From: an uncultured Candidatus Saccharibacteria bacterium
GTDB lineage: Bacteria > Patescibacteriota > Minisyncoccia > GCA-002772825
DNA: 52,787 bases
Assembly: GCA_964363045.1 (NCBI GenBank)
Contig: CAYIGM010000002.1
Span: 1-52,787, forward strand
Reading direction: 5' to 3'
Shown piece by piece: positions 2 to 52,763 of the stretch (the first letter of the stretch is position 1; every line of letters starts with the position of its first letter). The notes below the pieces were generated by a model. That model was not told where the DNA came from. It saw only the letters and a program-made list of their open reading frames with translations, and searched no databases. The position numbers and the translations under genes are program-made.

Positions 2-115
2 TCTACAGGAAATATGGCCGTGGGAGATATAATACGCTATCGCTTTCAAGCCTCGCCATTTATTATAATGTTTGCCGTATCAGGCATCTTCTTCTGCCTA
101 AAAAATAAAAAATGA
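2..115 (+). CDS. 3' end of an upstream ORF cut by the window edge (hydrophobic C-terminus ...IIMFAVSGIFFCLKNKK)
   Basis: Frame 2 is open from the window edge to TGA at 113-115. That TGA overlaps the ATG at 112-114 in an ATGA junction. No homology recognised. Confidence 0.3.
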   Translation, partial: STGNMAVGDIIRYRFQASPFIIMFAVSGIFFCLKNKK

Positions 116-1770: not shown

Positions 1771-1772
1771 AA

Positions 1773-27700: not shown

Positions 27701-28272
27701 GTGCCAACTGTAGTGGTACCGCCTGTGGTTGTTGTATCACCAGTAGTTGTACCGCCAGTAGTTGTGCCCGCGCATGTTCCATAAAGAGCATTCAATTTAG
27801 CTCTGGTAGAAGCGCCGACATAACCTGTTCCCGATGTTAGGCCAACCGGGGCCAAAACATCAGAGGCGTATTTGTTCTGGAATTTAATAACGGCTGATTT
27901 CGTCAAAGAACCGAAATAACTTGATTCGCTTCCTGGTGAACCAGCTCCGCTTGAAGCAATCTGTGTAGCTGAATCAGAGTTTAGAACCTTCTGAAGATTC
28001 ATAACATCTGAACTAGACTGACCTTGCTTCAAATTCGCACCGAATGTATATCCGCAAACTACTCCTGTGGCAGAAGCTCCGCCTGTGACACCTGACATCT
28101 GTGTCTGTAAAGCTGAGATCTGAGCAAGAAGATTTGCAATCTGTGACTGAAGCTCTTCCGTTGTTGCCGCGCCTGATGTATTTATAATACCACCAAACAT
28201 CATAACAGCAGTTGTAAGACCTAAGGTTACAGAAATTACTTTACTTAACCTAGATTTCTTAAATCTACTCAT
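24721..28272 (-). CDS. Giant cell-surface protein: signal-anchor, coiled segment, PG_binding_1-like domain, T/G-rich linker and an array of divergent Ig-like repeats
   Basis: The N-terminus is a TM segment followed by ELQSQIANLLAQISALQTQ. SSSDVMNLQKVLN...YFGSLTKSAVIKFQNKYA matches the peptidoglycan-binding fold. Recurrent (V/I).(K/A)G..(K/R).(I/F).(I/L).G(D)(I/L)A blocks occur about every 100 aa. Confidence 0.85.
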   Translation of the reverse strand: MSRFKKSRLSKVISVTLGLTTAVMMFGGIINTSGAATTEELQSQIANLLAQISALQTQMSGVTGGASATGVVCGYTFGANLKQGQSSSDVMNLQKVLNSDSATQIASSGAGSPGSESSYFGSLTKSAVIKFQNKYASDVLAPVGLTSGTGYVGASTRAKLNALYGTCAGTTTGGTTTGDTTTTGGTTTVGTGLTVSSVAQPAATLAVNSAANLPFTKVALTASTDGDITVNSILVERTGLAQDAVFSGVVLLDENGNQIGIAKTLNSLHQATAGDSFVVKAGQTRTITIAGNMVADNSTRAGQVAYLSVVGVNTSVNVSGALPITGAGHTINASLTIGSVAMSLGSLNPGSSQSKEIGTTGYTFTSVNVTAGSAEKVRLKSIRWNQSGSAASSDVANIKTYVDGTAYDVEVSSDGKYYTSNFSSGIVIDKGGFKEVSIKGDIAGGSGRGIDFDIYKTTDINIVGETYGYGITPPNGTDTSGTDDGAFHQSTNPWYDAYEVTVSTGSLNVQKASTVAAQNIAENVADQALGGFLVEAKGEQVSVANLIFNFLIVRTSGTTQGVNDITSITLVDENGNVVAGPVDGSGTGTGGTATFADTVTFPVGQHLFTLKGKIGTDFVNNDTVQASTTPSSNWTTVTGQTTGNSITPSPTSAVSANTMTVKSGSLAISVSPDPAAQTVVAGGSFIFANYYFDATASGEDIRMSSVPLAYGVSGDGSATSLTSCALYDGSTKLTTGSNAVNPSAAGSSTSFTFDGTGLVVSKGIVKTISLNCDIAGNASGKYMWGVDSAATFASTGLTSGQSITPTATDSNGQLITLASGGSFTVTLDTGKSPSSKEAGVAGTTGNVMGVLKFHATNEAINISRVALQITSASTSRNDIARLTLHDYDTGAQVGEAFFTTANNATSTLTSTFQVPKDSDKYMTIKVDLATIGTTGLGTQGHLVTVDYDGADSTGTRGTGVNSGTTIDTSSTADTAVNGLRLFKSLPTIAKVSVPTNTLSNGTKSLLRFKITADTAGDVGLYKFTVQVSTTTAVITNLNAYAYSDSAFSTPVSGVNAGGKMMNSDKATMQNSTDINIIADLAGTATNIQIPAGQTRYFEVLATVASSAAGASVSTQLQGDAAYPQLASFMGNVTLVDDEAGSNDDFIWSPNATTTSVNSNNDWTNGYNVTGLPGTNLTAEVLSQ

Positions 28273-38206: not shown

Positions 38207-39631
38207 TTATTCTTTTCTTAAAAATAACGGCTCCGGCATTTTGTTTGTTTTAATCGCATCTTTTATTTTTTGCGAAGTTTCAGGCATAAATGGAGCAATC
38301 AAATCAGCTATATTCCAAAGCTCGCCGGTTAATCCGGCAATTTCGCCAAGAGCTTTTTCTTTATCTGTCTTTATAAGTTTAAACGGCTGAGTTTCCTGAA
38401 TGCGCTTATCCATGCCACTTATCCTCTCCCAAACAAAATCCATTGCTTTATTGAATTCAAATTTTTCAATAAAATCTTTATATTCCACCGGAAAATCCTC
38501 ATCAACATCCGCAATCGGAGCATTAAGATAGGATTCGCTCATCTTTAAAATTCGCGCCGTCAAATTACCAAGACCATTCGCTAAATTGGAGTTATACATT
38601 TCTTTAAATTTTTCCTCCGTAAAATCGCTGTCTTCAAAAGGAGAAACTTCACGCGTCAGATAATAACGCAAAGCATCAGTACTGTAACGTTCCACAATAT
38701 CAAACGGGTCCACAACATTGCCCAAAGTTTTTGACATTTTCTGGCCGCCGCTTGTGATAAATCCGTGAATTATCACCTGTTTGGTATTTGGCAAACCGAC
38801 AGACATAAGCATAGCCTGCCACATTACGGCCTGCTGGCGTAGATTGTCTTTGCCCGCCACCTGAATACCCGGCCAAAAAGCGCGAAATTTTTCTTCATCT
38901 TTAGGCCAGCCAAGCGTTGAAATATAATTTACTAAAGCGTCAAACCACACATACATCACATGGTCTTGGTCACCGGGAACCGACACTCCCCACGGCATCT
39001 TCTCTTTTAATCGAGAAATGCTGAAATCGCAAATTCCGCTTGCCACAAATTTTTTTGCTTCATTAAATCTTTTTTCCGGTAAAACAAAATCCGGATTCTT
39101 TTCATAAAAATCAATCAATTTGTCTTTATACTTGGAAAAACGAAAAAAATAATTTTCTTCTTCAATTATTTCTATTTTCAAACTTGGATGCTCCGGGCAT
39201 TTGCCGTCCGTAAGGTCAGAATCAGTTTTCTCCATTTCGCAGCCAACGCAATATTTAACTTTATAATTTTTCTTATAAATATCCCCGGCCTCAAAAGACC
39301 TTTTCCAAAATTCCTGAGCGGCTTCTTTATGATAATTGTCAGTAGTGCGGATAAAAGCATTATTGCTTAAATTAAGCGCTTTCTGCAATTTCCTGAAATT
39401 TTCCGCGCAAGCATCGCAATAATTTTGCACTATTTCGCCTCTCTCCTCCGCCTTGCGATACACCTTAAGCCCGTGCTCATCGGTGCCGGTATTAAAAAAT
39501 ACATCCTTCCCCATGCTTCTTTTAAAACGAGCTAAAATATCCGCCTCCACCAATTCAAAAGCATGCCCCAAATGAGGGTTGGCGTTAACATACGGCAAAG
39601 TGGTTGTAATGTAAAATTTCCCTTTTTCCAT
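38207..39631 (-). CDS. metG: Methionine--tRNA ligase
   Basis: PYVNANPHLGHAFE (HIGH), KMSKTLGN (KMSKS) and a Zn knuckle CVGCEM...CPEH. ATG 39631 was chosen because the longer track ORF overlaps the upstream gene. Confidence 0.93.
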   Translation of the reverse strand: MEKGKFYITTTLPYVNANPHLGHAFELVEADILARFKRSMGKDVFFNTGTDEHGLKVYRKAEERGEIVQNYCDACAENFRKLQKALNLSNNAFIRTTDNYHKEAAQEFWKRSFEAGDIYKKNYKVKYCVGCEMEKTDSDLTDGKCPEHPSLKIEIIEEENYFFRFSKYKDKLIDFYEKNPDFVLPEKRFNEAKKFVASGICDFSISRLKEKMPWGVSVPGDQDHVMYVWFDALVNYISTLGWPKDEEKFRAFWPGIQVAGKDNLRQQAVMWQAMLMSVGLPNTKQVIIHGFITSGGQKMSKTLGNVVDPFDIVERYSTDALRYYLTREVSPFEDSDFTEEKFKEMYNSNLANGLGNLTARILKMSESYLNAPIADVDEDFPVEYKDFIEKFEFNKAMDFVWERISGMDKRIQETQPFKLIKTDKEKALGEIAGLTGELWNIADLIAPFMPETSQKIKDAIKTNKMPEPLFLRKE

Positions 39632-39638
39632 TGCAGAA

Positions 39639-40694
39639 TTATATCTCTCTCTTAAAAAGGTGCTTTCTCTCCACAATGTCTCTTGAAAACTCCATTAAAA
39701 CAGTCGCGACCGGAATAGCCAAAAGCACGCCAAAAAAACCGGCCAATTCACCGCCTATGACCAAAGAGAGAATTACCAAAATAGGCGGAATTCCAATAAT
39801 CTTTTTCACAACCAAAGGATAAATCAGATGATTCTCAAATTGCTGAATAATTATATATAAACCTATGACCATCAATCCTAAAGTGGGCGACTGAAGAAAA
39901 GCCACGCCTATCGCGGGTATGGATGCCATTATAGGGCCAAAGAACGGCATAAGTTCAAAAAGCGCTGAAATAATTCCAAAAATAAGCGCGTATTTCACAC
40001 CTAAAATAGTGAGTCCCAGATAAACCAAAATCCCCACCAGAACTCCGAGCAATATCTGACCCTGGAGCCACAAGCCTATTTTTTTCTGAACTCTCCGCCA
40101 AAGCCCTATGACATATTCTTCATCGCTGTCCGGCGAAATAATTCGCAGAAAATTCTCAATACCGTCTTTCTGAACCGCGAGATAAAATGATATGATAACA
40201 ATCAAGATAAATGACGAAGCGCCGCCAAAAACAGCGGACGCGGCTTGAAAAAATCCAGAAGTTATCTTGCCACTGGAAGCTTCAAGAACTTTAGTCAAAT
40301 CTGAAATAGCAATGGATAATGATTCCGGTATGCTTACTATGAAAGAAGAAAAGGTGGCTGATTCAAACGGCTTATTAAGATAAGTTGGAATCGCCTCGGT
40401 AAATCCTGATAGATTTTGAAATACGGGCGGTATTAGGAAAACAAATATTCCGCCTATTATTAAAAAGGATATCAGATAAATAAATAAAACACCGGCTACT
40501 CTTGGAACGCGCCGTCTTTCCGCCCAGCGAGCCGCCGGCTCAACAGCGGAAGCAATGACGATGGAAATTAAAATAACCATGGCTATATCCTTTAATATAT
40601 AGATAAACCAAGCGAGCGCGACAAAGACCGCCATCTTAATAATCGTTCCGCTCGTAATGCTTATTGTAATATTTTTTTCTTTTTTATCATTCAT
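39639..40694 (-). CDS. AI-2E family transporter (PerM/UPF0118)
   Basis: 8 TM-type hydrophobic profile. C-terminal ...IIIQQFENHLIYPLVVKKIIGIPPILVILSLVIGGELAGFFGVLLAIPVA. Confidence 0.85.
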   Translation of the reverse strand: MNDKKEKNITISITSGTIIKMAVFVALAWFIYILKDIAMVILISIVIASAVEPAARWAERRRVPRVAGVLFIYLISFLIIGGIFVFLIPPVFQNLSGFTEAIPTYLNKPFESATFSSFIVSIPESLSIAISDLTKVLEASSGKITSGFFQAASAVFGGASSFILIVIISFYLAVQKDGIENFLRIISPDSDEEYVIGLWRRVQKKIGLWLQGQILLGVLVGILVYLGLTILGVKYALIFGIISALFELMPFFGPIMASIPAIGVAFLQSPTLGLMVIGLYIIIQQFENHLIYPLVVKKIIGIPPILVILSLVIGGELAGFFGVLLAIPVATVLMEFSRDIVERKHLFKREI

Positions 40695-40696
40695 AC

Positions 40697-41977
40697 TTAT
40701 TTTGAAAATATTTTTCTTATTTTTTCAGAATCTATATTTTTGCCATCCTCCGGTATAATGCCGGCTATATTTATATTCTTCGGACGAAAGATATCCCTCG
40801 CTACTTTCATAATATCACTTGCGGTGACTTTTTCAATCTTTTTCATATATTCAACAGGAGTTAAAATTTTACCGCAAAAAAGCTCTTGTTCACCAAAAAA
40901 ATCAGCTATTTCTTCAGTATGTTCAAGAGAAAGAGTCATTCTGCCTCGTAAAAACTCTTTAGCAAAATAAAGCTCGTTCTTTGACAATTTGCGCTTCTTA
41001 AAATCATCCATCAATTTTGCTATTATCTGAAAGACAAGATAAAGTTTTTCCTTGGGCACGCCTGCGCGTATATTCAGATAACCGGAATCTTCATACTGGG
41101 CTCCGGACGCGCCAAGATAATAAGCAAGCCCGCGTTTTTCTCTTAATTCCTTAAAAAGTCGAGAAGACATATTTCCTCCCAAAATTACAGCCAAAATATC
41201 AAGAGCGTATTTTCTCTCGTCATTTATTCCATACGCGCGAGCGCCAACGACGATATGAGATTGGTCGCATTTTTTATCTTTTAAACTTATTTTTACTTCT
41301 TTCTGCTTTACCTTAGGCGGTAAAATCTTTTTTAACTTGCCGGTTTTAAGCCCGCTGAATAATTTACCAATCTTTTCAAACGCCGATTTTTCATCAATAT
41401 CTCCAGCGACAACCACTACTATATTATTCGGCAAATATCGTTTTTCCCTATATTTTATAATATCAGTCCGAGAAATATTTTTCACGCTTTCGCTCGCGCC
41501 AAGAGTCGCCATACTATGAGGATTCCCTTCATAAATCATACTTTCAATATCCCTTACTACTTTATCGCGAGGCTGATCTTCATACATTGATATCTCCTGC
41601 AAAATCACCCCTCGTTCTTTTTCTATTTCTTTTGCGTCAAAAATCGGATTTAAAACCATATCAGACACGACATCAAGGCCAATATCAAAATTACTAGAAG
41701 CGGACTTCACCCAAAATCCGGTAATTTCTTTACTGGTAAAAGCATTATTTTCTGCTCCTATACTATCAAGCTCTTTACTGATTGCCCCGGGTTTGGGCCT
41801 GTTTTTAGTCCCTTTAAAAACAAGATGCTCAAGAAAATGAGAGATGCCATTTACTTTTTTGTCTTCATTTTTAGCACCCGTCTTTACAAGCACCTGAAAA
41901 ACAACCGATTCCGTATTTTTCATCGGCGCAATAATGACCCTCAAGCCATTCTTCAAAGTATGTTTTTCGTATTTCAT
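40697..41977 (-). CDS. M16-family zinc peptidase (pitrilysin-like)
   Basis: HFLEHLVFKGT inverted zinc motif (HxxEH). The ~420-aa two-lobe length fits. Confidence 0.88.
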   Translation of the reverse strand: MKYEKHTLKNGLRVIIAPMKNTESVVFQVLVKTGAKNEDKKVNGISHFLEHLVFKGTKNRPKPGAISKELDSIGAENNAFTSKEITGFWVKSASSNFDIGLDVVSDMVLNPIFDAKEIEKERGVILQEISMYEDQPRDKVVRDIESMIYEGNPHSMATLGASESVKNISRTDIIKYREKRYLPNNIVVVVAGDIDEKSAFEKIGKLFSGLKTGKLKKILPPKVKQKEVKISLKDKKCDQSHIVVGARAYGINDERKYALDILAVILGGNMSSRLFKELREKRGLAYYLGASGAQYEDSGYLNIRAGVPKEKLYLVFQIIAKLMDDFKKRKLSKNELYFAKEFLRGRMTLSLEHTEEIADFFGEQELFCGKILTPVEYMKKIEKVTASDIMKVARDIFRPKNINIAGIIPEDGKNIDSEKIRKIFSK

Positions 41978-41979
41978 TA

Positions 41980-43272
41980 TTAAATTATGTTAATTTTTGT
42001 CTTCAAAAAATCAAGCAGTTCGGAAGATTTTATTCGCTCCTGCTCCCCAGTATCCCTGTCTCTCACTGTCATGGTATCATCTTCCAATGTATCAAAATCC
42101 ACAGTGATGCAATAGGGTGTCCCTATCTCATCTTGTCTTCGGTATCTTTTACCGATATTACCATTTGTATCAAACATTATCTGAGGGACCTCTTTTTTAA
42201 TCATATCGTAAACTTCGCGCGCTTTACCTACAAGCTCAGGCTTATTTTTAAGAAGCGGAAATATAGCCGCTTTGACAGGAGCGACGGGTGGCTTAAACTT
42301 GAGAAAAACGCGTGGCTCCCCTCCCAAACTATCTTCCGTATATGAATCAGAAAGCAAAGCGAGGACTGTCCTATCTACTCCGAAAGTCGGTTCAATTACA
42401 TGAGGGATAAAGGTCTCTTTTGCTTCTTCGTCATAATAATCAAGTTTATGATTTTTAAGGTCAAAGTCGGTTCTATACGCCAACCCGTAAAGCTCGCTCA
42501 CTCCAAAAGGAAACTTATATTCAAAATCAATCGTTCTTTTGGAATAATGAGCAAGGTCGTCTTTTGAAACTTCAAGCTCCGAAACATTACCGGGCGAAAG
42601 CCCTATCCCATCAATCCAAGAAAGCATCTCTTGTCTCCAGTATTCAAAATATTTTTCCCAATCTTTTTCCCTTATAAAATATTCTATCTCCATTTGTTCA
42701 AACTCCCTGGTGCGAAAGATAAAATCCTTGGGCGTAATTTCATTCCTGAAGGCTTTACCTATCTGACCGATGCCAAACGGAATTTTAGGATGAAAGGAAT
42801 CAACAATGTTGCCAAAATTTACAAACATCCCTTGAGCTGTTTCCGGGCGAAGATAAACTTGCGCCGAAGTCTCTTCAACCGGACCTATTGATGTTTTAAA
42901 CATCATATTAAACTGCTTTTCATCCGTAAGCTCTCCGTCGCATTCAGGACATTTATCATCTTTCAAATGGTCAGCTCGAAAACGCTTATGGCATTTTTTA
43001 CATTCCACTAAAGGGTCTGAGAAACCGGAAACATGTCCTGAAGCTTCCCAGACTTTTGAATTCATAATTATAGCCGCGTCAATTCCATACATATCATCCT
43101 TATTTAAAACAAACTTCTTCCACCATAGATTTTTTATATTATTCTTCATCTCAATGCCAAGCGGACCGTAATCCCAAGTGCCAGCCAGCCCACCATACAC
43201 ATCAGAGCCCGGATATATAAACCCGCGCCGTTTTGCTAAAGATACGATTTTCTCCATTTTTGATATTTCCAT
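41980..43272 (-). CDS. glyQS: Glycine--tRNA ligase (dimeric class II type)
   Basis: RRGFIYPGSDVYGG, YLRPETAQG, FRNEITP and GVDR motifs, plus a C-terminal anticodon-binding domain. Confidence 0.93.
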   Translation of the reverse strand: MEISKMEKIVSLAKRRGFIYPGSDVYGGLAGTWDYGPLGIEMKNNIKNLWWKKFVLNKDDMYGIDAAIIMNSKVWEASGHVSGFSDPLVECKKCHKRFRADHLKDDKCPECDGELTDEKQFNMMFKTSIGPVEETSAQVYLRPETAQGMFVNFGNIVDSFHPKIPFGIGQIGKAFRNEITPKDFIFRTREFEQMEIEYFIREKDWEKYFEYWRQEMLSWIDGIGLSPGNVSELEVSKDDLAHYSKRTIDFEYKFPFGVSELYGLAYRTDFDLKNHKLDYYDEEAKETFIPHVIEPTFGVDRTVLALLSDSYTEDSLGGEPRVFLKFKPPVAPVKAAIFPLLKNKPELVGKAREVYDMIKKEVPQIMFDTNGNIGKRYRRQDEIGTPYCITVDFDTLEDDTMTVRDRDTGEQERIKSSELLDFLKTKINII

Positions 43273-43284
43273 ATTTTTATTATA

Positions 43285-45204
43285 TTATTGAATTACTTTT
43301 TCCTGCCCAGATTCAAATCTGGAATCATTATCAAGTCTCGTAGTCAATACTCCCTTAATTTTTCTGATATCTATCCCGGCAAATGAATCCTTCCCCTCTA
43401 TAACAGTCTCCGAAACAAGATTCGGCGCAAAACCAACCTGTGAAAGCGAGGGGAGAAATCCTATTTGAAAAGAGATGTCTCTGGCCGGCTTCAATATCCC
43501 CGTCCCCGCGGAAATAAAACCGGCCTTCCAGACAACTTCGCCGGTATTTTTATCATAAGAGATAATATCATCTTGAGGAGACAAAGCGCCAGCCCATTCA
43601 ACATAAGACGGTAAAAAAGCCCTCACTTCCGCATTTTCAATATCATTTGTGGAATTGGAAAGCGACCAAACAATCGTATAAGTTGTCTTCTCCCCGGCTT
43701 TAGGCGGCAAGGGCCCGGTATTTTTAAAAGCCCCTTCATAATAAAGCGCTTGCGAGGCAAACTGAAGATTAGAAGCTATTTTTATATCTTTCTTGATTGC
43801 GCTTTTGACATTCACATCATCATATCCGCCGATAGTCTTCTCCCCAAAAATATTCGCCTCTAAAGAGATGACAAAATTCTTATCATTGGCATTCTTTTGG
43901 GGCAAATTGCCGGAGACAGAAAAAGTAAAACTAACCTTCCCTTCTCCGCCGGGTTCCATAAACTTAAATTCCGGCACTGACGAAGCATTCCACACCAAAG
44001 TCTGATCTGATGTTCTATAAAATCCGTTGACCGGAGAAATTGACTGAAAATTAACAGCACTGCCTGTTAATTTAACTTCAACAATGCCATTCTTTATTCT
44101 AACCGGCAGATTATTTTTCCAAAAAATATCAACCCTCATAATGTCCCCCGGGGAAGCTATATTATCTTTCTCATCATTATTATTTATAAATAAAGCCAAA
44201 TCTAAAAGTGTTTTTTTAATGACAACTGTTTCAGCTTTCTCTCCATAAACTTCAAGCTCATTATTTTCATTCAAAACTCCAACTTGAGCGAGAAAACCTT
44301 TTTCATCTAAATCGCTCCCATCTACCGTGCCTTTAATACTTATAACTCTTTTTTTTCCCGGTTCCAGCGCCCCTATATTCCATAAATTATCTTTGCCGGA
44401 AGATATCTTTGGACTGCTTTCTTTAAATTGAAATCCCGGCGGATACTGCATTTGCAAAACAAGATTATCAATCACGCTCTCTGCCTTAGATACATATTCA
44501 ACATCAAAATCAAGCTCTTGTTTTGCATTTGTCTCCTTGGGAAGTTTTATAGTAACCTCCACCGGCGATTCAAGCAATTTAATGGTCTTTTTTTCCGTTT
44601 TAACAAAAATAGCGTTTGAACCGGCGAGTCTGTATTCCAGAGTGGCATTTATAACTTTTTCACTGCCTTCACTCCCAAGCAGAATCAAATTTATCTCTTC
44701 AGTCGCTTTTCCGCCGGGAGATATCTGCCCCAGCTGATATCTCTGCTTTAAAGACTTGTCATCATTTTTCAAATTACGGGCTCCGGAAGGATATTCCAAT
44801 ATAAAGTCGGCAAATTCAAGCGGGGCATTATTATTATTGGACACGGCGACTTTCCAACTGTTAAGCTTGCCGCCCGACACGCTTCCCGGCCCTTCAAAAG
44901 TAATTTCAATATCATTTGAAGAGATAAAATTAAAACCTTTATTCCAAAAATAAGCTGTAGCCAAAAGAGCGATAGAAAAAAATACTCCGGCAAAGAGAAG
45001 AGCCATCCGCATCATTTTAGAAACAAAAGTTTTTTTCTTTGTCATATTTAAAGAAGAATTCCATTGAGATTTGTCTTTATCCGCCTCTGCCTCAAACTGC
45101 GTATTCAAACCAAGAAACGGGCGCTTTGCTCTGTTCTGAAAAGAATGCCCCTGGCTGTAAAGATTTCTTTTTAATTTCTCTATATTATCGGTATTTTCTG
45201 ACAT
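43285..45204 (-). CDS. Membrane-anchored protein with several CARDB/DUF11-like beta-sandwich domains
   Basis: A cytoplasmic N-tail, one TM (ALLFAGVFFSIALLATAYFW), then repeated PG.K..(I/V)S(I/F).(G/V) beta-sandwich signatures. Confidence 0.7.
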   Translation of the reverse strand: MSENTDNIEKLKRNLYSQGHSFQNRAKRPFLGLNTQFEAEADKDKSQWNSSLNMTKKKTFVSKMMRMALLFAGVFFSIALLATAYFWNKGFNFISSNDIEITFEGPGSVSGGKLNSWKVAVSNNNNAPLEFADFILEYPSGARNLKNDDKSLKQRYQLGQISPGGKATEEINLILLGSEGSEKVINATLEYRLAGSNAIFVKTEKKTIKLLESPVEVTIKLPKETNAKQELDFDVEYVSKAESVIDNLVLQMQYPPGFQFKESSPKISSGKDNLWNIGALEPGKKRVISIKGTVDGSDLDEKGFLAQVGVLNENNELEVYGEKAETVVIKKTLLDLALFINNNDEKDNIASPGDIMRVDIFWKNNLPVRIKNGIVEVKLTGSAVNFQSISPVNGFYRTSDQTLVWNASSVPEFKFMEPGGEGKVSFTFSVSGNLPQKNANDKNFVISLEANIFGEKTIGGYDDVNVKSAIKKDIKIASNLQFASQALYYEGAFKNTGPLPPKAGEKTTYTIVWSLSNSTNDIENAEVRAFLPSYVEWAGALSPQDDIISYDKNTGEVVWKAGFISAGTGILKPARDISFQIGFLPSLSQVGFAPNLVSETVIEGKDSFAGIDIRKIKGVLTTRLDNDSRFESGQEKVIQ

Positions 45205-45250: not shown

Positions 45251-45835
45251 TCAAAGATGGCTCTCTTTCAATCCTTTTCTGATTTCCAGAGACGCCTCCT
45301 TCTTAAAATTGTTCATCTCGTTAACAATCTCCAAAGAAAGTTCTCCTTCTAAAAACTTGCCAAGATTGCCGGTTGTGCCGATATAACCAAGATTATCCAA
45401 TATTTTAAGCGCCATTATAATTTCAAAATTGGCAATAGATTTTTTATCCAAAGAATTTTTATCAAGAAAACATATCCCTTTTTCAACAATACGCCAAAGA
45501 ACTTCGTTTTTCTCTTCGCCTTGAACCAATCGGGAAAGAAGATTTGCAATTCTTCCGAGCGATATATATTTATCATTATCTTCCTTAATGCTGAATCCCG
45601 AAATTTCTCTCGCATCTATCACACGCCATGATTCCCTGCCACGGACAAAAGAAAAACTGGCGTAAGATAAATTATCCAGATTATATCTTAATTTTGACTT
45701 TAAGAGCCTAACACCGTTTGCCGCGGCTTTAAGTCCGCCCAAACCGGCAGTATAGAAACTGATGAATTGGTCAGCTTCGCCAAAATTTTTTTTCCCGAGA
45801 ATAATCCCTTCTGTTTGATATATATAATGAGACAT
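45251..45835 (-). CDS. recO: DNA repair protein RecO (short form)
   Basis: N-terminal OB-fold signature TEGIILGKKNFGEADQFISFYT. 194 aa. Confidence 0.78.
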   Translation of the reverse strand: MSHYIYQTEGIILGKKNFGEADQFISFYTAGLGGLKAAANGVRLLKSKLRYNLDNLSYASFSFVRGRESWRVIDAREISGFSIKEDNDKYISLGRIANLLSRLVQGEEKNEVLWRIVEKGICFLDKNSLDKKSIANFEIIMALKILDNLGYIGTTGNLGKFLEGELSLEIVNEMNNFKKEASLEIRKGLKESHL

Positions 45836-45839
45836 TTAT

Positions 45840-46835
45840 TTACCTTTTTTCGTTTATAATATCTTTGGCCGCCTCCCAAAATTCCGGCCGATTATGCTTC
45901 TCCTTCATCCAATACCACCACTCAACCCCCCATAAATAGATTTCCTTAAAACCGGTTTTCTTGGCATATTCTATATTACTGTGAAATTGATTTATATTCA
46001 TAGATATCTCCTGCTCGGATAAAGGCGTCTCGTAAATCATCTTGGGTCCCCAGGGTTCAAGCTGGAGCTCGCTTATTATGATAGGCTTGTCGGGATAAAA
46101 CAGGTGCAATAAATTAGCCTTAAACCAAAAAAAGTTTGGCGGCAAAGGGTATTCAAAAAAACCGAAATATTTATTCCAAACTATCCTGTAAACACTAGTG
46201 CCAAAAATATCCGCGCGCTTGGCGGCGGAAAACCATGTGCCAAGCTCCCCGCTATCCGTTAACATAACAGGCCGGCTCGGGTCGGCAGAACGCACGATTT
46301 TGATCTCTTCATCTAAAAAATCTTTATTGAATCTGTCACATTCGCCGAAATGCAAAAACGGCTCATTTTCAATCTGCCAAGCGTATATATTGTCAAAATC
46401 TTTATACCGTCTGACTATTTTGTCCACAAGATGAAGAATCTCGTCTTTCTTACGCTCTTTACTCAAAGGATCAATCCATAACGGGATTTGACACTCAGGC
46501 CAACGCGGGAGTTTCTGCCCTATCGCCAAAACCAATTTTACGTCCCTTTTTTCAGCTTCTTTTATCATCCAATCGTAATCGTCAAATATATAAACACCTT
46601 CCTCCGGCTCAACATCATGCCAATAAAGAGGGATGCGCACCACCTCCGGATTAAGCTCTTCAAGCATAGCGAGATAAACCTCTTTAAAATCAAGCCCCAT
46701 ATCTTGGCTGAAAGACTTGGAGAATGTTATCCCCCAAGTATAATCAGGATTATCATTTACAATCGGCGTAAAAAGTAAAAAAGCAAAAAATCCCAATATT
46801 GAAATTAAAAATAAAATTAAAAATATTTTTTTCAT
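45840..46835 (-). CDS. Membrane-anchored or secreted glycoside hydrolase, clan GH-A (GH42/GH5-like)
   Basis: N-terminal TM or signal. IPLYWHDVEPEEGVYIFDDYD and the acid/base motif WQIENEP. Confidence 0.7.
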   Translation of the reverse strand: MKKIFLILFLISILGFFAFLLFTPIVNDNPDYTWGITFSKSFSQDMGLDFKEVYLAMLEELNPEVVRIPLYWHDVEPEEGVYIFDDYDWMIKEAEKRDVKLVLAIGQKLPRWPECQIPLWIDPLSKERKKDEILHLVDKIVRRYKDFDNIYAWQIENEPFLHFGECDRFNKDFLDEEIKIVRSADPSRPVMLTDSGELGTWFSAAKRADIFGTSVYRIVWNKYFGFFEYPLPPNFFWFKANLLHLFYPDKPIIISELQLEPWGPKMIYETPLSEQEISMNINQFHSNIEYAKKTGFKEIYLWGVEWWYWMKEKHNRPEFWEAAKDIINEKR

Positions 46836-46841
46836 TTTTTA

Positions 46842-47762
46842 TTAAAAAGCCAAAACCATTAACCCTATACCTATTAAAAGCACAGCGGCAACTTTCTGAA
46901 AGAAGCATTTCCAGTGGTGCACTTCTTCTTTAATGGCTCCCGGGGAAACCCTGACAATAACCCCCGCCAGAAAAAGAATGGAAATATACTGCACCCCCTG
47001 AAGCGCGTTTACCAAAGTGACACTACCGAGAGAGATGGCGTAATTTAGAAGGATGAATCCGATGCCGGCTAAAAATTTATTGGCGATAAACAGACCGCCA
47101 CCCCCGACTCCGACATTTTTCGTAGTGTGAAATATGGCCTGCCTAAATCCCTTTGGTATAATAAGAAAAAAAGCGGCAAAGAAACTCCCGACCCTCGTCC
47201 AGACAAAAGTTGAAATAAACGGCTGATTAAGAAAAACAAATTTCGTCAAAACATAAAAAATGGCAAAAAGTAAAGCAGCCAAGATTGAAACTTCAATCTT
47301 TCGCCAAGAATATTTTTTAAATGCTGAATTATTATGAAGATGATGCTCTTTCCTTCTCGCCAAGATCAAAATACCCCCTGCAAAGAGAAAAAAGAACGCT
47401 ATTATTTGATACCAAAATAATCTTTCTCCCAAAAATAGAAACGAGAGTAAAAATACAAAAATCGGCGTGAAGGCGCCGACAATCGGCGCTATACGCGAAA
47501 CCTCGTCTTTACTCAAAGCGATGAAAAATGCCAGAAGCGCGCAGAGAAAAACCGCACCGACAAGAAAATTCAAAGCAAGTTGGCTTACTCCCGGCCAAAC
47601 AAGACTAAAGGGAGCAAAGACCAATCCAAATATGCTGAATAACCCCACATAGAATGTGTAAGCGATAGGGTTCGGAATATTCTTATCCAAAAGGAGTTTA
47701 TCTATTACCGAATTGGCGGCATTTATAAAGTAAGCAATGATAGCAACAAAAACCCAGCTCAT
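46842..47762 (-). CDS. EamA/DMT-superfamily transporter
   Basis: 306 aa with about 10 TM segments in two similar halves. Confidence 0.78.
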   Translation of the reverse strand: MSWVFVAIIAYFINAANSVIDKLLLDKNIPNPIAYTFYVGLFSIFGLVFAPFSLVWPGVSQLALNFLVGAVFLCALLAFFIALSKDEVSRIAPIVGAFTPIFVFLLSFLFLGERLFWYQIIAFFFLFAGGILILARRKEHHLHNNSAFKKYSWRKIEVSILAALLFAIFYVLTKFVFLNQPFISTFVWTRVGSFFAAFFLIIPKGFRQAIFHTTKNVGVGGGGLFIANKFLAGIGFILLNYAISLGSVTLVNALQGVQYISILFLAGVIVRVSPGAIKEEVHHWKCFFQKVAAVLLIGIGLMVLAF

Positions 47763-47806
47763 ATTTAAATAATTATACCCTAATTAGAAATTTAGGTAAA
47801 ACAAAA

Positions 47807-47828
47807 GGCGGGTTTTTAAAAACCCGCC
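47807..47828 (-). terminator. Intrinsic terminator after the GH1 gene
   Basis: Perfect palindrome GGCGGGTTTTT/AAAAACCCGCC, followed on the minus strand by TTTTGTTTT. Confidence 0.75.
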
Positions 47829-47859
47829 TAGCAAAGACCTGGACTGTTTTTAACACAAA

Positions 47860-49107
47860 TCAAAGCTCCATCTCATTCTCTTTGCAAATCTTCGCATACT
47901 CATAGGCGCTGGGGCGGATTTTACGCTCCAGTGTCTTGTAATCAATCTCCACCAAGCCAAACCTCGGCCAGAACCCCTTATCCCATTCAAAGTTATCCAG
48001 CAAAGACCAATAGAGGTATCCTCTGACATCCACCCCGTCCTCCATCGCCCTTGCCACAGCCTTAATATTCTCTCTGATAAACCAACTTCTATACTTATCT
48101 TCCTTGTCAGCCAAACCGTTTTCTGTAATATAAATCGGCTTATTATATTTTCTTATATCAAGCAGTCCATAATACAGAGCCTCCGGATAAAGTTCCCACC
48201 CCATATCGGAAAGCTTCTCATTTTTATTCTTATTAAAACCGTAATTGATCGTATTGTGATGATAATTATTCAGACCGATAAAATCCTGGCAATTCGCGAT
48301 ACTATTCAGAAACGAGAAATTCCATGCCCAATCAAGCGCTTTTTTAAGCAGGCGATTTATAAATCTCTCTTTATACGCATCAAAATAAACATTATGTTTA
48401 GAAATCCCAACTTGATAATCTTTATTTATTTCTTTAAGTGTTTTATAAGCCGCGCGATGAGCCTTAGTTAAATTTCTTATTACTAAAAACAAAGACAACG
48501 GATCCTTTTTCTGCGGAGGCCATGCGCCTTTTAGATATGAATGCGTCGCATAAACCAGCGGCTCATTTAAAGTAATCCAGAATTTGGCATCAGCGCCGAG
48601 CGCTTCTGCCATCTTCCTGGTGTATCTTCCAAAATACTCTATCACCTCGCCAGACATCCAGCCTCCTTTATCTTTAAGCCAGACAGGAAGCGGCCAATGC
48701 CAAAGGGTAACAAAAGGCTCAATTCCTCGCGCGCGCAAAGCCTTAATTACTTTCCGATAATGCTCTATCTCTTTCTCGTCAAATCTCCCCTCCTCCGGTT
48801 CAATGCGCGACCACTCTATGGAAAAACGAAAAGCGTTTTGCCCCAGAGATTTCGCAATATCAAAGTCCTCTTCATAACGGTTGTAATGGTCGCAAGCGAC
48901 ACCCGAGATGTAATTCTCGGGATTCTCCGCCTCTTCTTTAATGCTTTCCCAATTCGGCAAATAGCCAAATTTTCTCTTAGCGCTCTTCGCCAATCTCTCG
49001 GCATTCTTCTTCTCCCAGATAAACCAGTCGTTCACATTGCCACCTTCCACTTGATGGCTGGCCGTAGCACTCCCCCACAAAAAATTTTCCGGAAATTTAA
49101 ATTTCAT
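47860..49107 (-). CDS. GH1 beta-glucosidase
   Basis: FLWGSATASHQVEGG N-terminal signature, TLNEP acid/base motif and ITENG nucleophile motif. Confidence 0.92.
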   Translation of the reverse strand: MKFKFPENFLWGSATASHQVEGGNVNDWFIWEKKNAERLAKSAKRKFGYLPNWESIKEEAENPENYISGVACDHYNRYEEDFDIAKSLGQNAFRFSIEWSRIEPEEGRFDEKEIEHYRKVIKALRARGIEPFVTLWHWPLPVWLKDKGGWMSGEVIEYFGRYTRKMAEALGADAKFWITLNEPLVYATHSYLKGAWPPQKKDPLSLFLVIRNLTKAHRAAYKTLKEINKDYQVGISKHNVYFDAYKERFINRLLKKALDWAWNFSFLNSIANCQDFIGLNNYHHNTINYGFNKNKNEKLSDMGWELYPEALYYGLLDIRKYNKPIYITENGLADKEDKYRSWFIRENIKAVARAMEDGVDVRGYLYWSLLDNFEWDKGFWPRFGLVEIDYKTLERKIRPSAYEYAKICKENEMEL

Positions 49108-49238: not shown

Positions 49239-52200
49239 TTATCTCACAACTTTTATTATAAACTCCAAACCATCTAACTTCAAAGCCTCTCCGCCTTCCA
49301 CTTCCTTAAACTCAACAGCGCGCGCGTTAACAATCTTCTTAAGCTCATCCTCAAATTTCTTTACCAATTCTTGTCCGACAGAATCCGTCTTAATGAAAAC
49401 AGCAATCTCATCCTTCGGTGTCAAACCGGCCTTCTTCCTTAAATCCTGGACAAACCTAACGATATCCCTAAACCTTCCTTCGGAAACAAGTTCGGGAGTT
49501 AATTCCAAATCTAGCTTTACGTCATTTTCAATTCCGGCATCGAAACTAATCTCCTTTACATTCACCTCGTCTTTCACCAGCTCAAGTAAATCATCTTTTC
49601 CTTTTAACTTTTCGTTCTTAATTATCAATTTTTGCAGAGGCTGCCTTACTTTAATCCCCGCTTCAGCTCGCGCCTCAAGACCAAAGGAGACGATCTTCCT
49701 TATCTCCTTCATATCATAAAGAATCTCTAAATCTTTATTCGTTTTATCCACCCCGAACATACCAAGGAGATTCTCAGTTAATGATTTCTTTAACGGCCAT
49801 TCTTCCAAGTGTACGCTTTCTTTTTCACTGCTCAACAACTTATAAAGCCTTTCTGCCATAAACGGCATTAAAGGAGCCGTCACTTTAGCAAAGCCCAAGA
49901 GAATGAATTTTGTGGTCAAGATAGCGCTCTCTTTATCTTCCCCTTCGTCTTTAAATCTGTCTCTGGAACGCCTGACATACCAAGTGGAGAGATCATCCAC
50001 AAAATCAAAAATAGGCCTTGCCGCTTTATCAAGTTCATATTTATCAAGGCCCGCTGTTATTTCTTCCGTCAATTCATTAAGTCGCGCGACTATCCACCTG
50101 TCCAAAATATTTCCTATAGTCCCACTTGGCGGCGCCGCCAAGTGGGACTTGGCGGCGCCGCCGCCAAGTGAGTACATATCGTAGAAACTATACACATTCC
50201 ATAAACGCAAAATTACTTTCTTATACACTTCATCTACATTTTTTTCCGAAAAATTGATATCCTCCGCGCGTACCGCCGGTGAGGATAAAAGATAAAGCCG
50301 AAGCGCGTCAGCGCCATATTTTTTAACAATTTCCACCGGGTCGGTATAATTCTTAAGACGTTTGCTTATCTTCTGCCCGTCGAGAGCCAAGATAATGCCG
50401 TTTACAATCACATTCTTATACGCCGGCCGACCAAACAAGGCGGTAGATAATACAAGCAGTGTGTAAAACCAGCCTCGCGTCTGGTCTAGCCCTTCGGCGA
50501 TAAACTCCGCCGGGAAATTCTTTTCAAGCTCCTCTTTATTTTCAAAAGGATAATGCGCCGAGGCATAGGGCATTGAACCAGACTCAAACCAGCAATCAAA
50601 TACATAGATAATCCTCTTCATCTTACCACCGCAAGAACAGTCAAACTCCACCTTATCTATATAGGGCCGATGCAAGTCCAGTTCATAATCCTCATTATGA
50701 GGAACTGGGGTAAACTCTAGCTTTCTTAATTCTCCGGTCTCTATATAATCATCGCCCTTTTCTTCTTTCATCTTTACCGACTTTTTCACATCAGCGCCAA
50801 GAGCGCCGGCAAAGAGAAGCCAGATAGGATACTCATGACTGATAATTAAAATATTCTTACCCTGATATTTGTTTTCAATATCATACAAAAATTCAGACAC
50901 TCTGTTTTTAAGCTCTGTCAGATTCTCCCCTTTAGGCGGCGATTTTACAAACTTCTCTTCAAAAGTGTCAAAATAATTATGGTAATCAGCCGGACTTTTC
51001 CCGTCAAAAATTCCGGTATTTAATTCCCTAATTCGTTTGTCAAAAATAATTTTCTCTTTATCATAACCGATCTCTCCTGCCACTATTTCAGCCGTCTCTT
51101 TTGTCCGGATAAAATCCGAAGAAAAGATAATATCAATATTTTCACTTTTTATTTTTTGAGAAATTCCACTCGTGTCCGCCCTTCCTTTTTCCGTAAGATG
51201 GTGCGGGTTATCCACCATGGAACTCACGATATTTTTCTTATTGTGGTCTGACTCTCCATGACGCATCACGAAATATCCATTGCCTGACTTTTGAATTTTA
51301 TCTTTGATATCATCTATGGAGCCTGCGATTTCCAAGCTATCGCACTTCTCGCATTTCCACACTGGCAAAGGCGCTCCCCAGAATCTGCTTCTTGATATCG
51401 CCCAGTCTCTGGCGCCAGAAAGCCACTTTCCGAAACGGCCGTTCTTTATATGCGCCGGCACCCAATTAATCTCCTCATTATTCTTAAGAAGATTGTCTTT
51501 AATTGCCGTCACTTTCACAAACCAAGAAGAGGTCGCGTAATTCAAGAGAGGTGTATCGCACCTCCAGCAATGTGGGTAAGAGTGAACTATCTTTTTCTTG
51601 GCAAACAATTTCCCTTCGCGAGCTAAATACTTTATTATTTCAATATCAGTTTCCTGGTGATTCTCTTTCGGTTTTACAAATCTTCCGGCAAAATCCTTCA
51701 CTTCACTTCTAAAACGACCGTCACCGGTGACATGCTGAACAAAAGGAAGAGCGTATTCCATGGCGACATTCATATCGTCCTCGCCAAAAGCCGGCGCGAT
51801 ATGCACAACACCCGTTCCTTCTTCCGTTGTCACAAAATCAGCCGAATATATTTTCCAGCCGTTTTCCCGATTCTCCAAATCTCTTTTCTCTGAATAATAA
51901 TCAAAAAGCGGTTTATAACTTTTACCGGAAAGAGTGCCTCCCTTAAAGGTTTCAATTATCTCGTATTCTCCTTCAATAACAGAAAGCCTGTCTTTCGCCA
52001 AAATAATCTTCTCGCCGTCTTTTTCAATCTTCGCATATAAAATATCCGGATTCATCGCCAAAGCGACATTGCCCGGAAGAGTCCAAGGCGTCGTCGTCCA
52101 AGCGAGGACAAAAGTGCCCGGCTCATCAACGAGCTCAAATTTAGCCGTCACCGAAATATCCGTAATATCCTTATACCCTTGAGAAACTTCAAAGTTCGCG

Positions 52201-52763
52201 AGGGTCGTTTCGCAACGCGGGCAAAGGTGCATCGGTTTGTATCCCTCATACACAAGACCTTTGTCATAAAGAGTTTTAAAAACCCACCAAACAGATTCCA
52301 TATAATTCGCATCCATCGTCTTGTAATCCGCTTCCATGTCAACGAATCGTCCAATTTGAGGAATAATCTTTTTCCAATCGTTTGTATCGCGAACAACAAC
52401 ATTTTTAGCGGCTTTATTAAATTTCTCAAGCCCCAACTCTTCAATGTCACTCTTAGCTTTAAGACCAAGCTCCTTTTCAACAACATTTTCAACAGGCAGA
52501 CCATGGCAATCCCAACCCCAACGACGCGGGACGCGATATCCTTGCATTGTCTTATAGCGAGGAATTATATCTTTAATGACACTCGCCAAAATATGCCCAT
52601 AATGAGGCGGACCATTGGCAAAAGGCGGTCCATCATAGAAAACAAACTCACCTGAAGTGGAATCCTTCTTGAGAGTTTTTTCAAAAATTTTATTATCCTG
52701 CCAAAACTTTAAAATATCCTTTTCCGCTTCAGCCGGAGATTTATCTTTTAGATTATCTTCCAT
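49239..52763 (-). CDS. ileS: Isoleucine--tRNA ligase (type 2, eukaryote/Thermus-like) with an internal histidine-phosphatase domain
   Basis: PPFANGPPHYGH (HIGH), editing domain TTTPWTLPGN, WAISRSRFWG, FDCWFESGSMPYA, DQTRGWFYTL and KISKRLKN (KMSKS). Confidence 0.95.
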   Translation of the reverse strand: MEDNLKDKSPAEAEKDILKFWQDNKIFEKTLKKDSTSGEFVFYDGPPFANGPPHYGHILASVIKDIIPRYKTMQGYRVPRRWGWDCHGLPVENVVEKELGLKAKSDIEELGLEKFNKAAKNVVVRDTNDWKKIIPQIGRFVDMEADYKTMDANYMESVWWVFKTLYDKGLVYEGYKPMHLCPRCETTLANFEVSQGYKDITDISVTAKFELVDEPGTFVLAWTTTPWTLPGNVALAMNPDILYAKIEKDGEKIILAKDRLSVIEGEYEIIETFKGGTLSGKSYKPLFDYYSEKRDLENRENGWKIYSADFVTTEEGTGVVHIAPAFGEDDMNVAMEYALPFVQHVTGDGRFRSEVKDFAGRFVKPKENHQETDIEIIKYLAREGKLFAKKKIVHSYPHCWRCDTPLLNYATSSWFVKVTAIKDNLLKNNEEINWVPAHIKNGRFGKWLSGARDWAISRSRFWGAPLPVWKCEKCDSLEIAGSIDDIKDKIQKSGNGYFVMRHGESDHNKKNIVSSMVDNPHHLTEKGRADTSGISQKIKSENIDIIFSSDFIRTKETAEIVAGEIGYDKEKIIFDKRIRELNTGIFDGKSPADYHNYFDTFEEKFVKSPPKGENLTELKNRVSEFLYDIENKYQGKNILIISHEYPIWLLFAGALGADVKKSVKMKEEKGDDYIETGELRKLEFTPVPHNEDYELDLHRPYIDKVEFDCSCGGKMKRIIYVFDCWFESGSMPYASAHYPFENKEELEKNFPAEFIAEGLDQTRGWFYTLLVLSTALFGRPAYKNVIVNGIILALDGQKISKRLKNYTDPVEIVKKYGADALRLYLLSSPAVRAEDINFSEKNVDEVYKKVILRLWNVYSFYDMYSLGGGAAKSHLAAPPSGTIGNILDRWIVARLNELTEEITAGLDKYELDKAARPIFDFVDDLSTWYVRRSRDRFKDEGEDKESAILTTKFILLGFAKVTAPLMPFMAERLYKLLSSEKESVHLEEWPLKKSLTENLLGMFGVDKTNKDLEILYDMKEIRKIVSFGLEARAEAGIKVRQPLQKLIIKNEKLKGKDDLLELVKDEVNVKEISFDAGIENDVKLDLELTPELVSEGRFRDIVRFVQDLRKKAGLTPKDEIAVFIKTDSVGQELVKKFEDELKKIVNARAVEFKEVEGGEALKLDGLEFIIKVVR
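50121..50170. repeat. Tandem GC-rich palindromes inserted in frame in ileS
   Basis: CCCACTTGGCGGC|GCCGCCAAGTGGG is a perfect 26-nt palindrome at 50121-50146. A near copy ACTTGGCGGCGCCGCCGCCAAGTG follows directly. Together they encode ...LGGGAAKSHLAAPPSG. Confidence 0.8.
50682..51284 (-). other. Histidine phosphatase (PGAM/His_Phos_1-like) domain embedded in IleRS, about residues 494-694
   Basis: FVMRHGESDHN (RHG), SSDFIRTKETAEIV (second Arg), RELNTGIFDG (Glu) and LIISHEYPI (second His). Flanked by VWKCEKCDSLEIAGS and LDLHRPYIDKVEFDCSCGG, which sit about 12 aa apart in the Thermus IleRS as I recall it. Confidence 0.8.

Follow-up and report, generated by a model that had tools for sequence, protein, structure and literature searches.

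A histidine-phosphatase domain nested in the isoleucyl-tRNA synthetase of a Patescibacteria genome, and its free-standing relatives beside ileS

What is a histidine phosphatase doing inside the chain of an isoleucyl-tRNA synthetase (IleRS)? The question is raised by the ileS gene at one end of a 52,787-nucleotide stretch of DNA (herein referred to as the window; contig CAYIGM010000002.1 of GenBank assembly GCA_964363045.1, positions 1 to 52,787 of the forward strand) from a bacterium deposited as an uncultured Candidatus Saccharibacteria and placed by GTDB in the Patescibacteriota. A first reading of the letters alone (the original prediction) had proposed that nucleotides 50682-51284, which encode G494-E694 (GNGYFVMRHGES...PHNEDYE), hold an apparently intact histidine-phosphatase domain of about 200 residues set inside the catalytic core of the synthetase, with the frame unbroken through both junctions. 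Indeed, ileS is a single open reading frame (ORF; 49239..52763, minus strand) of 1174 codons with no stop or frameshift, and an insert of 198 residues lies within it. We hypothesize, with a probability of roughly 0.6, that this insert is an active phosphatase functionally coupled to IleRS as its dedicated partner.

The inserted domain and its site

Alignment with an insert-less Patescibacteria IleRS sets the boundaries of the insert at G496-Y693: the upstream junction reads KSEKEIN followed directly by NLELHRPFVDKV in the insert-less enzyme and IQKSGN followed by the 198 residues in the window IleRS. When aligned with human IleRS (9w01), query residues 488 and 696 map onto chain residues 490 and 498, and with Priestia IleRS2 (8c8v) residues 485 and 688 map onto 473 and 479. 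Some 200 query residues therefore replace a linker of 5-8 residues, and the short linker that the original prediction had expected in type-2 IleRS is confirmed. The features on which this section depends are the following.

50685..51278, minus strand: the insert, 198 residues (G496-Y693), comprising an entire branch-1 histidine-phosphatase domain and a return strand at its C-terminal end, delimited by alignment with insert-less IleRS
51255..51263, minus strand: RHG motif, R501, H502 (predicted phospho-accepting nucleophile) and G503, in FVMRHGES; codons verified
51105..51107, minus strand: R553, the second phosphate-binding arginine, in FIRTKET; codon verified
51024..51026, minus strand: E580, the predicted general acid/base, in RELNTG; codon verified
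50835..50837, minus strand: H643, the second catalytic histidine, in ISHEYP; codon verified
51279..51362, minus strand: first half of CP3, residues 468-495, with CxxC (C471, C474; nucleotides 51342-51353) and a helix, ending in IQKSGN; from alignment and translation
50613..50684, minus strand: second half of CP3, residues 694-717, with CxC (C709, C711; nucleotides 50631-50639); from alignment and translation

The profile His_Phos_1 (PF00300) matches residues 498-662 (nucleotides 50778-51272) with E=1.6e-32 and 113.2 bits against a gathering score of 21.7, covering profile positions 2-166 of 194, and tRNA-synt_1 (PF00133) flanks this match on both sides. All the catalytic residues that had been read from the four motifs are present in the canonical order, and the RHG triplet comes after a modelled strand (496-501), which puts the nucleophilic histidine at the end of strand 1. 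Across an alignment of 118 homologues R501, H502, R553, E580 and H643 are invariant, G503 is kept in 115 and N508 is nearly invariant. This set is fixed even though the insert diverges more than the flanking core (mean pairwise identity of 0.51 vs 0.71 in the same alignment), and to judge from this sequence pattern the phosphatase domain is selected as an enzyme.

Structure prediction, which the original prediction had put forward as a check, gives a confident fold for the insert both alone (AlphaFold2, AF2; predicted local distance difference test, pLDDT, 96.4; predicted template modelling score, pTM, 0.92) and in the full-length protein (mean pLDDT 88.9, pTM 0.82), where the insert blocks reach 91-97 and the junctions 92-94. 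Foldseek pairs the insert with small-molecule phosphatases at a probability of 1.00, a template modelling (TM) score of 0.73-0.81 and a root-mean-square deviation of 2.1-3.3 A, the nearest structures being PspA (4ij5/4ij6; TM 0.78), Rv2419c (4qih), PhoE (1h2e), CobC (6nru/6e4b) and the riboflavin-pathway structure 9mmh; the model and these matches agree on the alpha/beta fold of the cofactor-dependent phosphoglycerate mutases (dPGM). Neither a protein phosphatase nor SixA is among the 50 listed structural matches. Profile and model together show the insert to be a complete branch-1 histidine-phosphatase domain of the short PspA/PhoE/CobC-like kind, and its modelled fold neighbours favour a small-molecule-type pocket suited to a small phosphomonoester.

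Against the NCBIfam equivalogs the insert always scores under the cutoff. As a phosphoglycerate mutase it scores at best 74.5 bits against the 225 required by dPGM_arch, with the other models (NF038349, NF002339, TIGR01258 and further ones) lower still; it likewise fails as CobC (TIGR03162; 77.3 vs 162.9 bits) and as PspA (NF045917; 69.2 vs 350 bits). The RELNTGIFDG that contains the glutamate is, we take it, of the phosphatase type and not of the ERHYG type found in mutases. The likeness to 9MMH was also viewed alongside the order ribF-ileS seen in other bacteria, and set aside as a probable coincidence. The comparison enzymes (PspA of Hydrogenobacter, 4IJ5, a phosphoserine phosphatase; PhoE/YhfR of Geobacillus, 1H2E/1EBB; CobC, 6NRU and 6E4B, the alpha-ribazole phosphatase; and Rv2419c, 4QIH) share the fold, the RHG...R...E...H order and a length of about 190-210 residues; unlike the window's domain, which is 18-26% identical to them and is nested in, or in its relatives operon-coupled to, a synthetase, they are free-standing metabolic enzymes.

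The insert sits between the CxxC (C471, C474) and CxC (C709, C711) halves of the CP3 zinc knuckle, whose four cysteines are at least 90% conserved and whose H698 and D703 are invariant in the 118 homologues. CP3, a peripheral connective-peptide module that follows CP2 and precedes the second Rossmann half, is a zinc-binding element in Thermus IleRS and varies in topology among the Thermus, Staphylococcus and Candida enzymes (PMC7191050). The insertion site is a peripheral, variable subdomain, and the claim of a place inside the catalytic core holds for the order of the chain and fails for the three-dimensional active site. In this respect the architecture illustrates how a domain can be inserted naturally into a Rossmann-fold enzyme.

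What surrounds the insert is a conventional type-2 synthetase, with these features.

49239..52763, minus strand: ileS, a complete type-2 (eukaryote/archaea-like) IleRS with the insert, 1174 residues; from the ORF, TIGR00392 and Foldseek
52593..52604, minus strand: HIGH signature HYGH of the synthetic site, residues 54-57; from translation
50358..50372, minus strand: KMSKS signature KISKR, residues 798-802; from translation, with K798 and K801 invariant in the 118 homologues
49626..50102, minus strand: anticodon-binding domain (Pfam Anticodon_1), residues 888-1046
49245..49520, minus strand: C-terminal IleRS2-type domain (Pfam DUF5915), residues 1082-1173

The protein belongs to TIGR00392 (isoleucine--tRNA ligase; 897.2 bits vs a cutoff of 621.4) through two matched stretches with the insert between them, and the top Foldseek matches of the full model are IleRS structures only: Priestia IleRS2 (8c8v/8c8w, E ~1e-85), the yeast enzyme (8wnd) and Thermus (1ile). 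Like Priestia megaterium IleRS2 (8C8U/8C8V) and Thermus thermophilus IleRS (1ILE), it has the Rossmann halves, the CP core, the CP1 editing domain, CP2, CP3 with a Thermus-like zinc knuckle (C471, C474, C709, C711) and DUF5915, and the similarity to type-2 IleRS is strong (target-normalized TM score of 0.80; phmmer E of 1e-231 to 1e-219); where those enzymes have their short linker, it has the phosphatase. Both class I signatures and the CP1 editing motif are present: among the 118 homologues H54 and G56 of HYGH never vary, H57 is retained in at least 90%, and the editing residues W222-TTTPWT-228 and G316-x-G318...H321 are invariant. With HYGH, KISKR, TTTPWT and the four zinc-knuckle cysteines all conserved, the host synthetase looks fully functional as far as sequence can tell. 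It is not a member of the mupirocin-resistance types MupA or MupB (NF000257 and NF000258; 760 and 775 bits vs an exception cutoff of 1900), to which it appears to be a generic IleRS2 relative only. To our knowledge, a catalytic module in CP3 has no parallel among the IleRS that have been solved or described.

Recurrence of the architecture, and its precedents

All of the 120 best homologues (57-84% identity; NCBI, JGI, ENA and Logan) combine PF00300 with PF00133, and those that are named belong to Wolfe-, Niyogi-, Lloyd- or Yonathbacteria or to Paceibacterota. A scan of GTDB, with one genome per species, found relatives encoded in at least 489 species genomes; its query was made of 11 close sequences and is therefore biased towards sequences with the insert at CP3 (site A). 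Of 80 loci fetched from that scan, 79 align in frame as a single stretch across both junctions, and the exception (L065) has frameshifts throughout its ileS. The architecture is common in Parcubacteria/Paceibacteria. Many of the GTDB records that encode an ileS of this Parcubacteria type are titled "uncultured Candidatus Saccharibacteria" and one "Spirochaetia bacterium", labels that look automatic, unless the contigs are mis-binned.

This recurrence bears on the reading that the architecture is an artefact, either of a chimeric assembly or of an intein-like or mobile element excised from the mature protein. Two features could speak for it: the GC content of the insert (0.376 for 50682-51284) is slightly under that of the remaining ileS (0.425), and a conserved PHN stands ahead of the downstream junction. 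A misassembly is ruled out because the same in-frame insert recurs in all of the best homologues and in nearly every fetched locus, that is, in hundreds of independent assemblies. An intein or mobile element is rejected on the grounds that no Hint, intein, LAGLIDADG or homing-endonuclease domain is matched in Pfam and that a canonical phosphatase fold is found instead; moreover, PHN is followed by E/D-Y-E, whereas inteins require C, S or T at that position, and the 118-homologue alignment has no conserved intein-type nucleophile at the upstream junction. We regard the chance of an artefact in either form as negligible.

The original prediction knew of no phosphatase module within a synthetase, and would have given way if the insert proved common and already characterized; it is common, and we found no paper that characterizes it. 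A literature search on IleRS, tRNA synthetases or the candidate phyla radiation (CPR) returned no report of a histidine-phosphatase, phosphoglycerate-mutase-like or GNAT insertion, and the main text of a 2026 preprint on 96,219 IleRS architectures is silent on both phosphatases and CPR. The architecture can be found in public databases, where it goes by the generic label "class I tRNA ligase family protein" or "isoleucyl-tRNA synthetase", and a description of it was not found in the literature. It is not categorically new, since both of its parts are known families and the combination has already been deposited many times.

Synthetases joined to a second enzyme have precedents. LysX of mycobacteria (LysRS-MprF) and ProRS with a YbaK-like domain are fusions in which the second activity edits or makes use of the aminoacyl-tRNA that is formed, and we know of no phosphatase that acts in tRNA charging. 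The curated precedent closest to hand is NF040702 (ileS_w_GNAT), an IleRS with a second enzyme domain; unlike it, the window protein has no acetyltransferase match in Pfam and scores 335.8 bits vs a cutoff of 1999. Two relatives do carry both a GNAT domain and His_Phos_1, and also score far below that cutoff. The first (P0084; NCBI MFC1801975.1, 1325 residues; 321 bits) is an IleRS with the phosphatase insert that NCBI names "GNAT family N-acetyltransferase". The second (P0236; JGI, 1066 residues, ending at its contig end) has an IS200/RAYT-like Y1 transposase domain in the editing region (residues 340-461), His_Phos_1 at CP3 (680-854) and GNAT at about the second insertion hot spot (935-1063). 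A branch-1 domain is also joined to a nucleic-acid enzyme in the bifunctional RNase H/acid phosphatase (NF005567, Rv2228c type), of which the insert matches positions 180-348 at 73 bits vs a cutoff of 326; the two domains are fused end to end there, whereas here one is nested in the other.

The free-standing gene and the ileS locus

A HMMER search with the insert alone against 1.84 billion representatives returned 76 matches at E<=1e-30, and among the best 150 matches 97 have IleRS flanks, 46 are free-standing (about 190-200 residues) or short fragments and 7 have other flanks. The stand-alone homologues are 41-46% identical to the insert, retain the same catalytic set and form a Patescibacteria family of their own (479 matches) that is labelled "PhoE" or "histidine phosphatase family protein". 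Where they lie is informative. The survey of related genomes that had been suggested for ileS with and without the insert turned up the insert-less form at six loci (L081-L086), in which a phosphatase gene stands between argS or thrS and an ileS of 949-966 residues, directly upstream of the latter; recO and then a DUF11/CLIPPER-type protein follow, which is the downstream synteny of the window.

A metagenome sample gave the same picture at larger scale. It comprised 80 loci, of which 72 had room downstream; 9 of these 72 proved to be CP3 inserts, leaving 63 stand-alone genes. In 38 of the 63 ileS starts directly downstream on the same strand and in 4 more it starts 0.5-1.5 kb further on; in about 21 of the 72 there is no ileS nearby. 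The two genes overlap or are separated by no more than 10 nucleotides in 25 of the 32 evaluable loci, most commonly with a 4-nucleotide overlap (10 loci), an arrangement that predicts co-translation and probably a complex. Conversely, of the 61 inserted-form loci that extend far enough upstream to be judged, none has a free copy on the upstream side of ileS (in one locus there is a copy far downstream), and argS is the direct upstream neighbour in 15 of them. The free and the inserted phosphatase are mutually exclusive at the locus, alternatives of one partnership in a Rosetta-stone relationship, and these gene neighbourhoods show the tie to IleRS to be specific.

The orthology of these loci can be followed through recO, which is the immediate downstream neighbour of ileS in 31 of 65 inserted-form loci and is retained, at a distance, in the window.

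45251..45835, minus strand: recO, conserved downstream neighbour of ileS; from Pfam RecO_N and synteny with loci L081, L085 and L170

Judged by this synteny, recO marks the window locus as orthologous to the argS/thrS - phosphatase - ileS - recO loci of insert-less lineages.

Charge separates the two forms as well: the stand-alone phosphatases are very basic (median isoelectric point, pI, 9.7 and net charge +14), and those embedded in an acidic host IleRS (net -16) are close to neutral (median pI 6.8, net -1). The pattern fits docking of the free protein onto IleRS or tRNA, which would be unneeded once the domain is tethered. One free-standing subgroup (P0501; L167, 5001-5600) lies away from ileS, between a Gmad2/Germane protein and an HI0933-like flavoprotein that is followed by BipA, and may be a paralogue with a different role.

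Among the best 150 matches CP3 is the site of most IleRS-borne copies, and it is not the only one. P0234 (6 members, on contigs of up to 1.06 Mb) and P0264 have no insert at site A and carry two intact copies elsewhere, one after SGSMPYAS/HYPFEN and before FPADFIAEGLDQTRGW, the other in the loop that opens the anticodon-binding domain. The counterpart in the window IleRS of this latter position (site C, mapped in P0234 and P0264) is the loop at residues ~865-885, just upstream of Anticodon_1. P0234 (L172, 6001-10260; 48.5% GC) has as neighbours purA, a DAHP synthase, SUF genes and an SLH protein, a context unlike that of typical minimal Patescibacteria genomes, which suggests an independent origin. 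Every full-length extra copy retains R-H...R...E...H. A neighbour-joining tree of 149 domain copies is star-like, and the order and number of insertion events are not separated in it.

Rarely, the domain is found on other hosts. ArgRS carries a C-terminal copy in 3 clusters, and in one genome with this fusion (L170) ileS has gone from the locus and the phosphatase is joined to argS ahead of recO, which makes the fusion a read-through of neighbouring genes. A TsaC/Sua5 threonylcarbamoyl-AMP synthase (P0183; L173, 977-2140) bears a C-terminal copy at the position of the SUA5 domain of some Sua5 proteins; it is known from a single 3.7-kb contig on which ileS is not adjacent. A complete ValRS-like ORF (P0142; L174, 366-3851) has three full phosphatase copies and a truncated one but no anticodon-binding domain; it comes from two low-coverage assemblies and may represent a gene that is split or in decay. 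Every fusion partner that was identified catalyses ATP -> acyl-AMP + PPi (pyrophosphate) chemistry that serves tRNA. As a common theme of tRNA adenylate-forming enzymes this is weakened by the read-through origin of the ArgRS cases, the one TsaC contig and the oddness of the ValRS ORF.

The remainder of the window was also inspected. Between ileS and recO lie a GH1 beta-glucosidase (47860-49107), an EamA transporter (46842-47762) and a GH42-like protein (45840-46835); because recO so often follows ileS directly in the related loci, these three genes (45840-49107) look like a small inserted glycoside-utilisation island. Beyond recO, 38207-45204 encodes a DUF11 protein, a class II aminoacyl-tRNA synthetase (tRNA-synt_2b and HGTP_anticodon), an M16 peptidase, an AI-2E transporter and MetRS, and synteny with the locus of the ArgRS-phosphatase fusion extends from recO as far as the AI-2E transporter. 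Large ORFs (533-1301 residues) at 112-4974, 18600-22505 and 24721-28272 have no Pfam match, save for a Lamin-tail in 18600-22505, and resemble the big uncharacterised surface proteins common in CPR genomes.

Coupled partner or passenger

A functional link between phosphatase and synthetase is the best supported reading because free and nested forms alternate at the locus, the catalytic residues are strictly conserved and the tethering has been repeated independently. We hypothesize that in insert-less lineages a free phosphatase would be co-translated with IleRS, probably in complex with it, and that in the window's lineage the same activity would be tethered covalently to the synthetase surface. 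The tethered enzyme might, speculatively, dephosphorylate a molecule that either binds at the synthetic site or is released from it. Our first choice of substrate would be a nucleotide phosphomonoester such as the product AMP, whose local removal could pull the reaction from ATP to AMP and PPi forward in organisms thought to conserve PPi; our second would be a 2'/3'-(pyro)phosphorylated A76 end of tRNA, cleared before charging. That the substrate is either AMP or a related nucleotide, or else a phosphorylated tRNA 3' end, is a tentative guess to which, even with both taken together, we give well under an even chance. The original prediction had offered, as speculation, phosphate-bearing 2'/3' ends of tRNA, a phosphorylated nucleotide or a phosphorylated inhibitor as targets.

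Several points weigh against this favoured account. The insert lies under all equivalog cutoffs, and homology thus assigns it no specific substrate; hydrolysing AMP would carry a high cost, and the account does not explain why IleRS alone among some 20 synthetases should need it. The high pI of the stand-alone proteins may merely reflect AT-rich genomes, and about one third of the stand-alone relatives lie away from ileS. Conserved gene order is no proof of shared function, the ribF-ileS-lspA order of proteobacteria being the standard counter-example. As for the fusions to other hosts, the ArgRS case is explained by read-through and is limited to its 3 clusters, the TsaC case is a single contig and the ValRS-like protein lacks an anticodon-binding domain.

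Gene order by itself carries little weight, one free gene in three lies elsewhere and non-IleRS fusions are few. These points keep alive an explanation without any coupling, namely that a housekeeping phosphatase (a phosphoserine, sugar-phosphate or phosphoglycerate phosphatase, or a mutase) was the ancestral neighbour of ileS and was fused or inserted into a tolerant surface loop as genomes were reduced. The metabolic small-molecule phosphatases among its fold neighbours and the name "broad specificity phosphatase PhoE" that sources give to the free form both suit such a passenger; so do the variable, insertion-tolerant character of the CP3 appendage, the plain read-through behind the ArgRS fusion, the location of a third of the stand-alone relatives and the in-frame presence of unrelated modules (GNAT, IS200/RAYT-like) in these IleRS, which implies that the scaffold tolerates passengers. 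An internal insertion is nevertheless not explicable by simple loss of a stop codon, and intact copies stand at no fewer than three IleRS sites, in one variant (P0234) in a gene context unlike minimal Patescibacteria genomes. Persistence of the inserted form in at least 489 species genomes without change in any catalytic residue, the typical overlap or gap of at most 10 nucleotides between the free gene and ileS, the mutual exclusion of free and inserted forms at the locus and the independent TsaC fusion away from ileS all argue for more than proximity, and we consider an uncoupled passenger unlikely, if still a serious contender.

Two further explanations give the domain another role. It could be a protein phosphatase that protects its own host, dephosphorylating IleRS (perhaps at a serine of the KMSKS loop or close to it) or a nearby translation factor as an in-cis antidote to inhibitory phosphorylation by Hip-like or other toxin kinases or by host kinases. 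HipA and HipT toxins inactivate the class I synthetases GltX and TrpS by phosphorylation of the ATP-binding loop, and branch-1 histidine phosphatases include the protein phosphatases PGAM5 and Sts-1 and the phosphohistidine phosphatase SixA; these precedents, together with insertion at several surface sites, the multiple copies and weak, below-cutoff matches of relatives to the SixA model, are compatible with in-cis protection. On the other side, the 50 listed structural neighbours include neither a protein phosphatase nor SixA, the conserved neighbourhood shows no kinase gene, we know of no kinase that targets IleRS and the TsaC partner has no KMSKS loop, which leaves this role decidedly improbable. 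Alternatively, the domain could be non-catalytic, a ligand sensor that tunes IleRS or a structural or tRNA-binding spacer. Its catalytic residues double as ligand-binding residues in this fold, and their conservation cannot separate binding from catalysis; the confidence of the modelled junctions suggests rigid packing onto CP3. The full set, Glu580 and His643 included, is nonetheless invariant in all 118 homologues and in all full-length extra copies, which is more than binding usually needs, the free-standing homologues keep the same set and pseudo-enzymes of the family typically lose the nucleophile or the glutamate. We think a non-catalytic role very improbable.

If the domain is an active, dedicated partner of IleRS, a phosphatase step could be obligatory for aminoacylation in a major branch of the Patescibacteria, provided by a module reserved for IleRS as coupled subunit or nested domain; we offer this as a possibility that we would not expect to hold. 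In one version the module would clear 2'/3'-phosphorylated or pyrophosphorylated ends of tRNA(Ile), and would thereby serve tRNA-end repair or immunity to toxins that modify tRNA ends; in the other it would hydrolyse the AMP product, allowing charging to proceed at high cellular PPi.

The generic annotation "class I tRNA ligase family protein" hides a probable bifunctional enzyme, and large-scale surveys of IleRS can overlook the phosphatase insert, as the main text of the 2026 survey suggests. Aminoacyl-tRNA synthetases are among the best-studied enzymes, and here a phosphatase is kept with IleRS as an abutting gene or as a nested domain; similar domains captured independently at other sites, or by other adenylate-forming tRNA enzymes, are a classic signature of functional partnership. 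The substrate of the domain could reveal quality control or repair of tRNA ends, a thermodynamic drive for aminoacylation in energy-poor symbionts or a defence against toxins that target translation.

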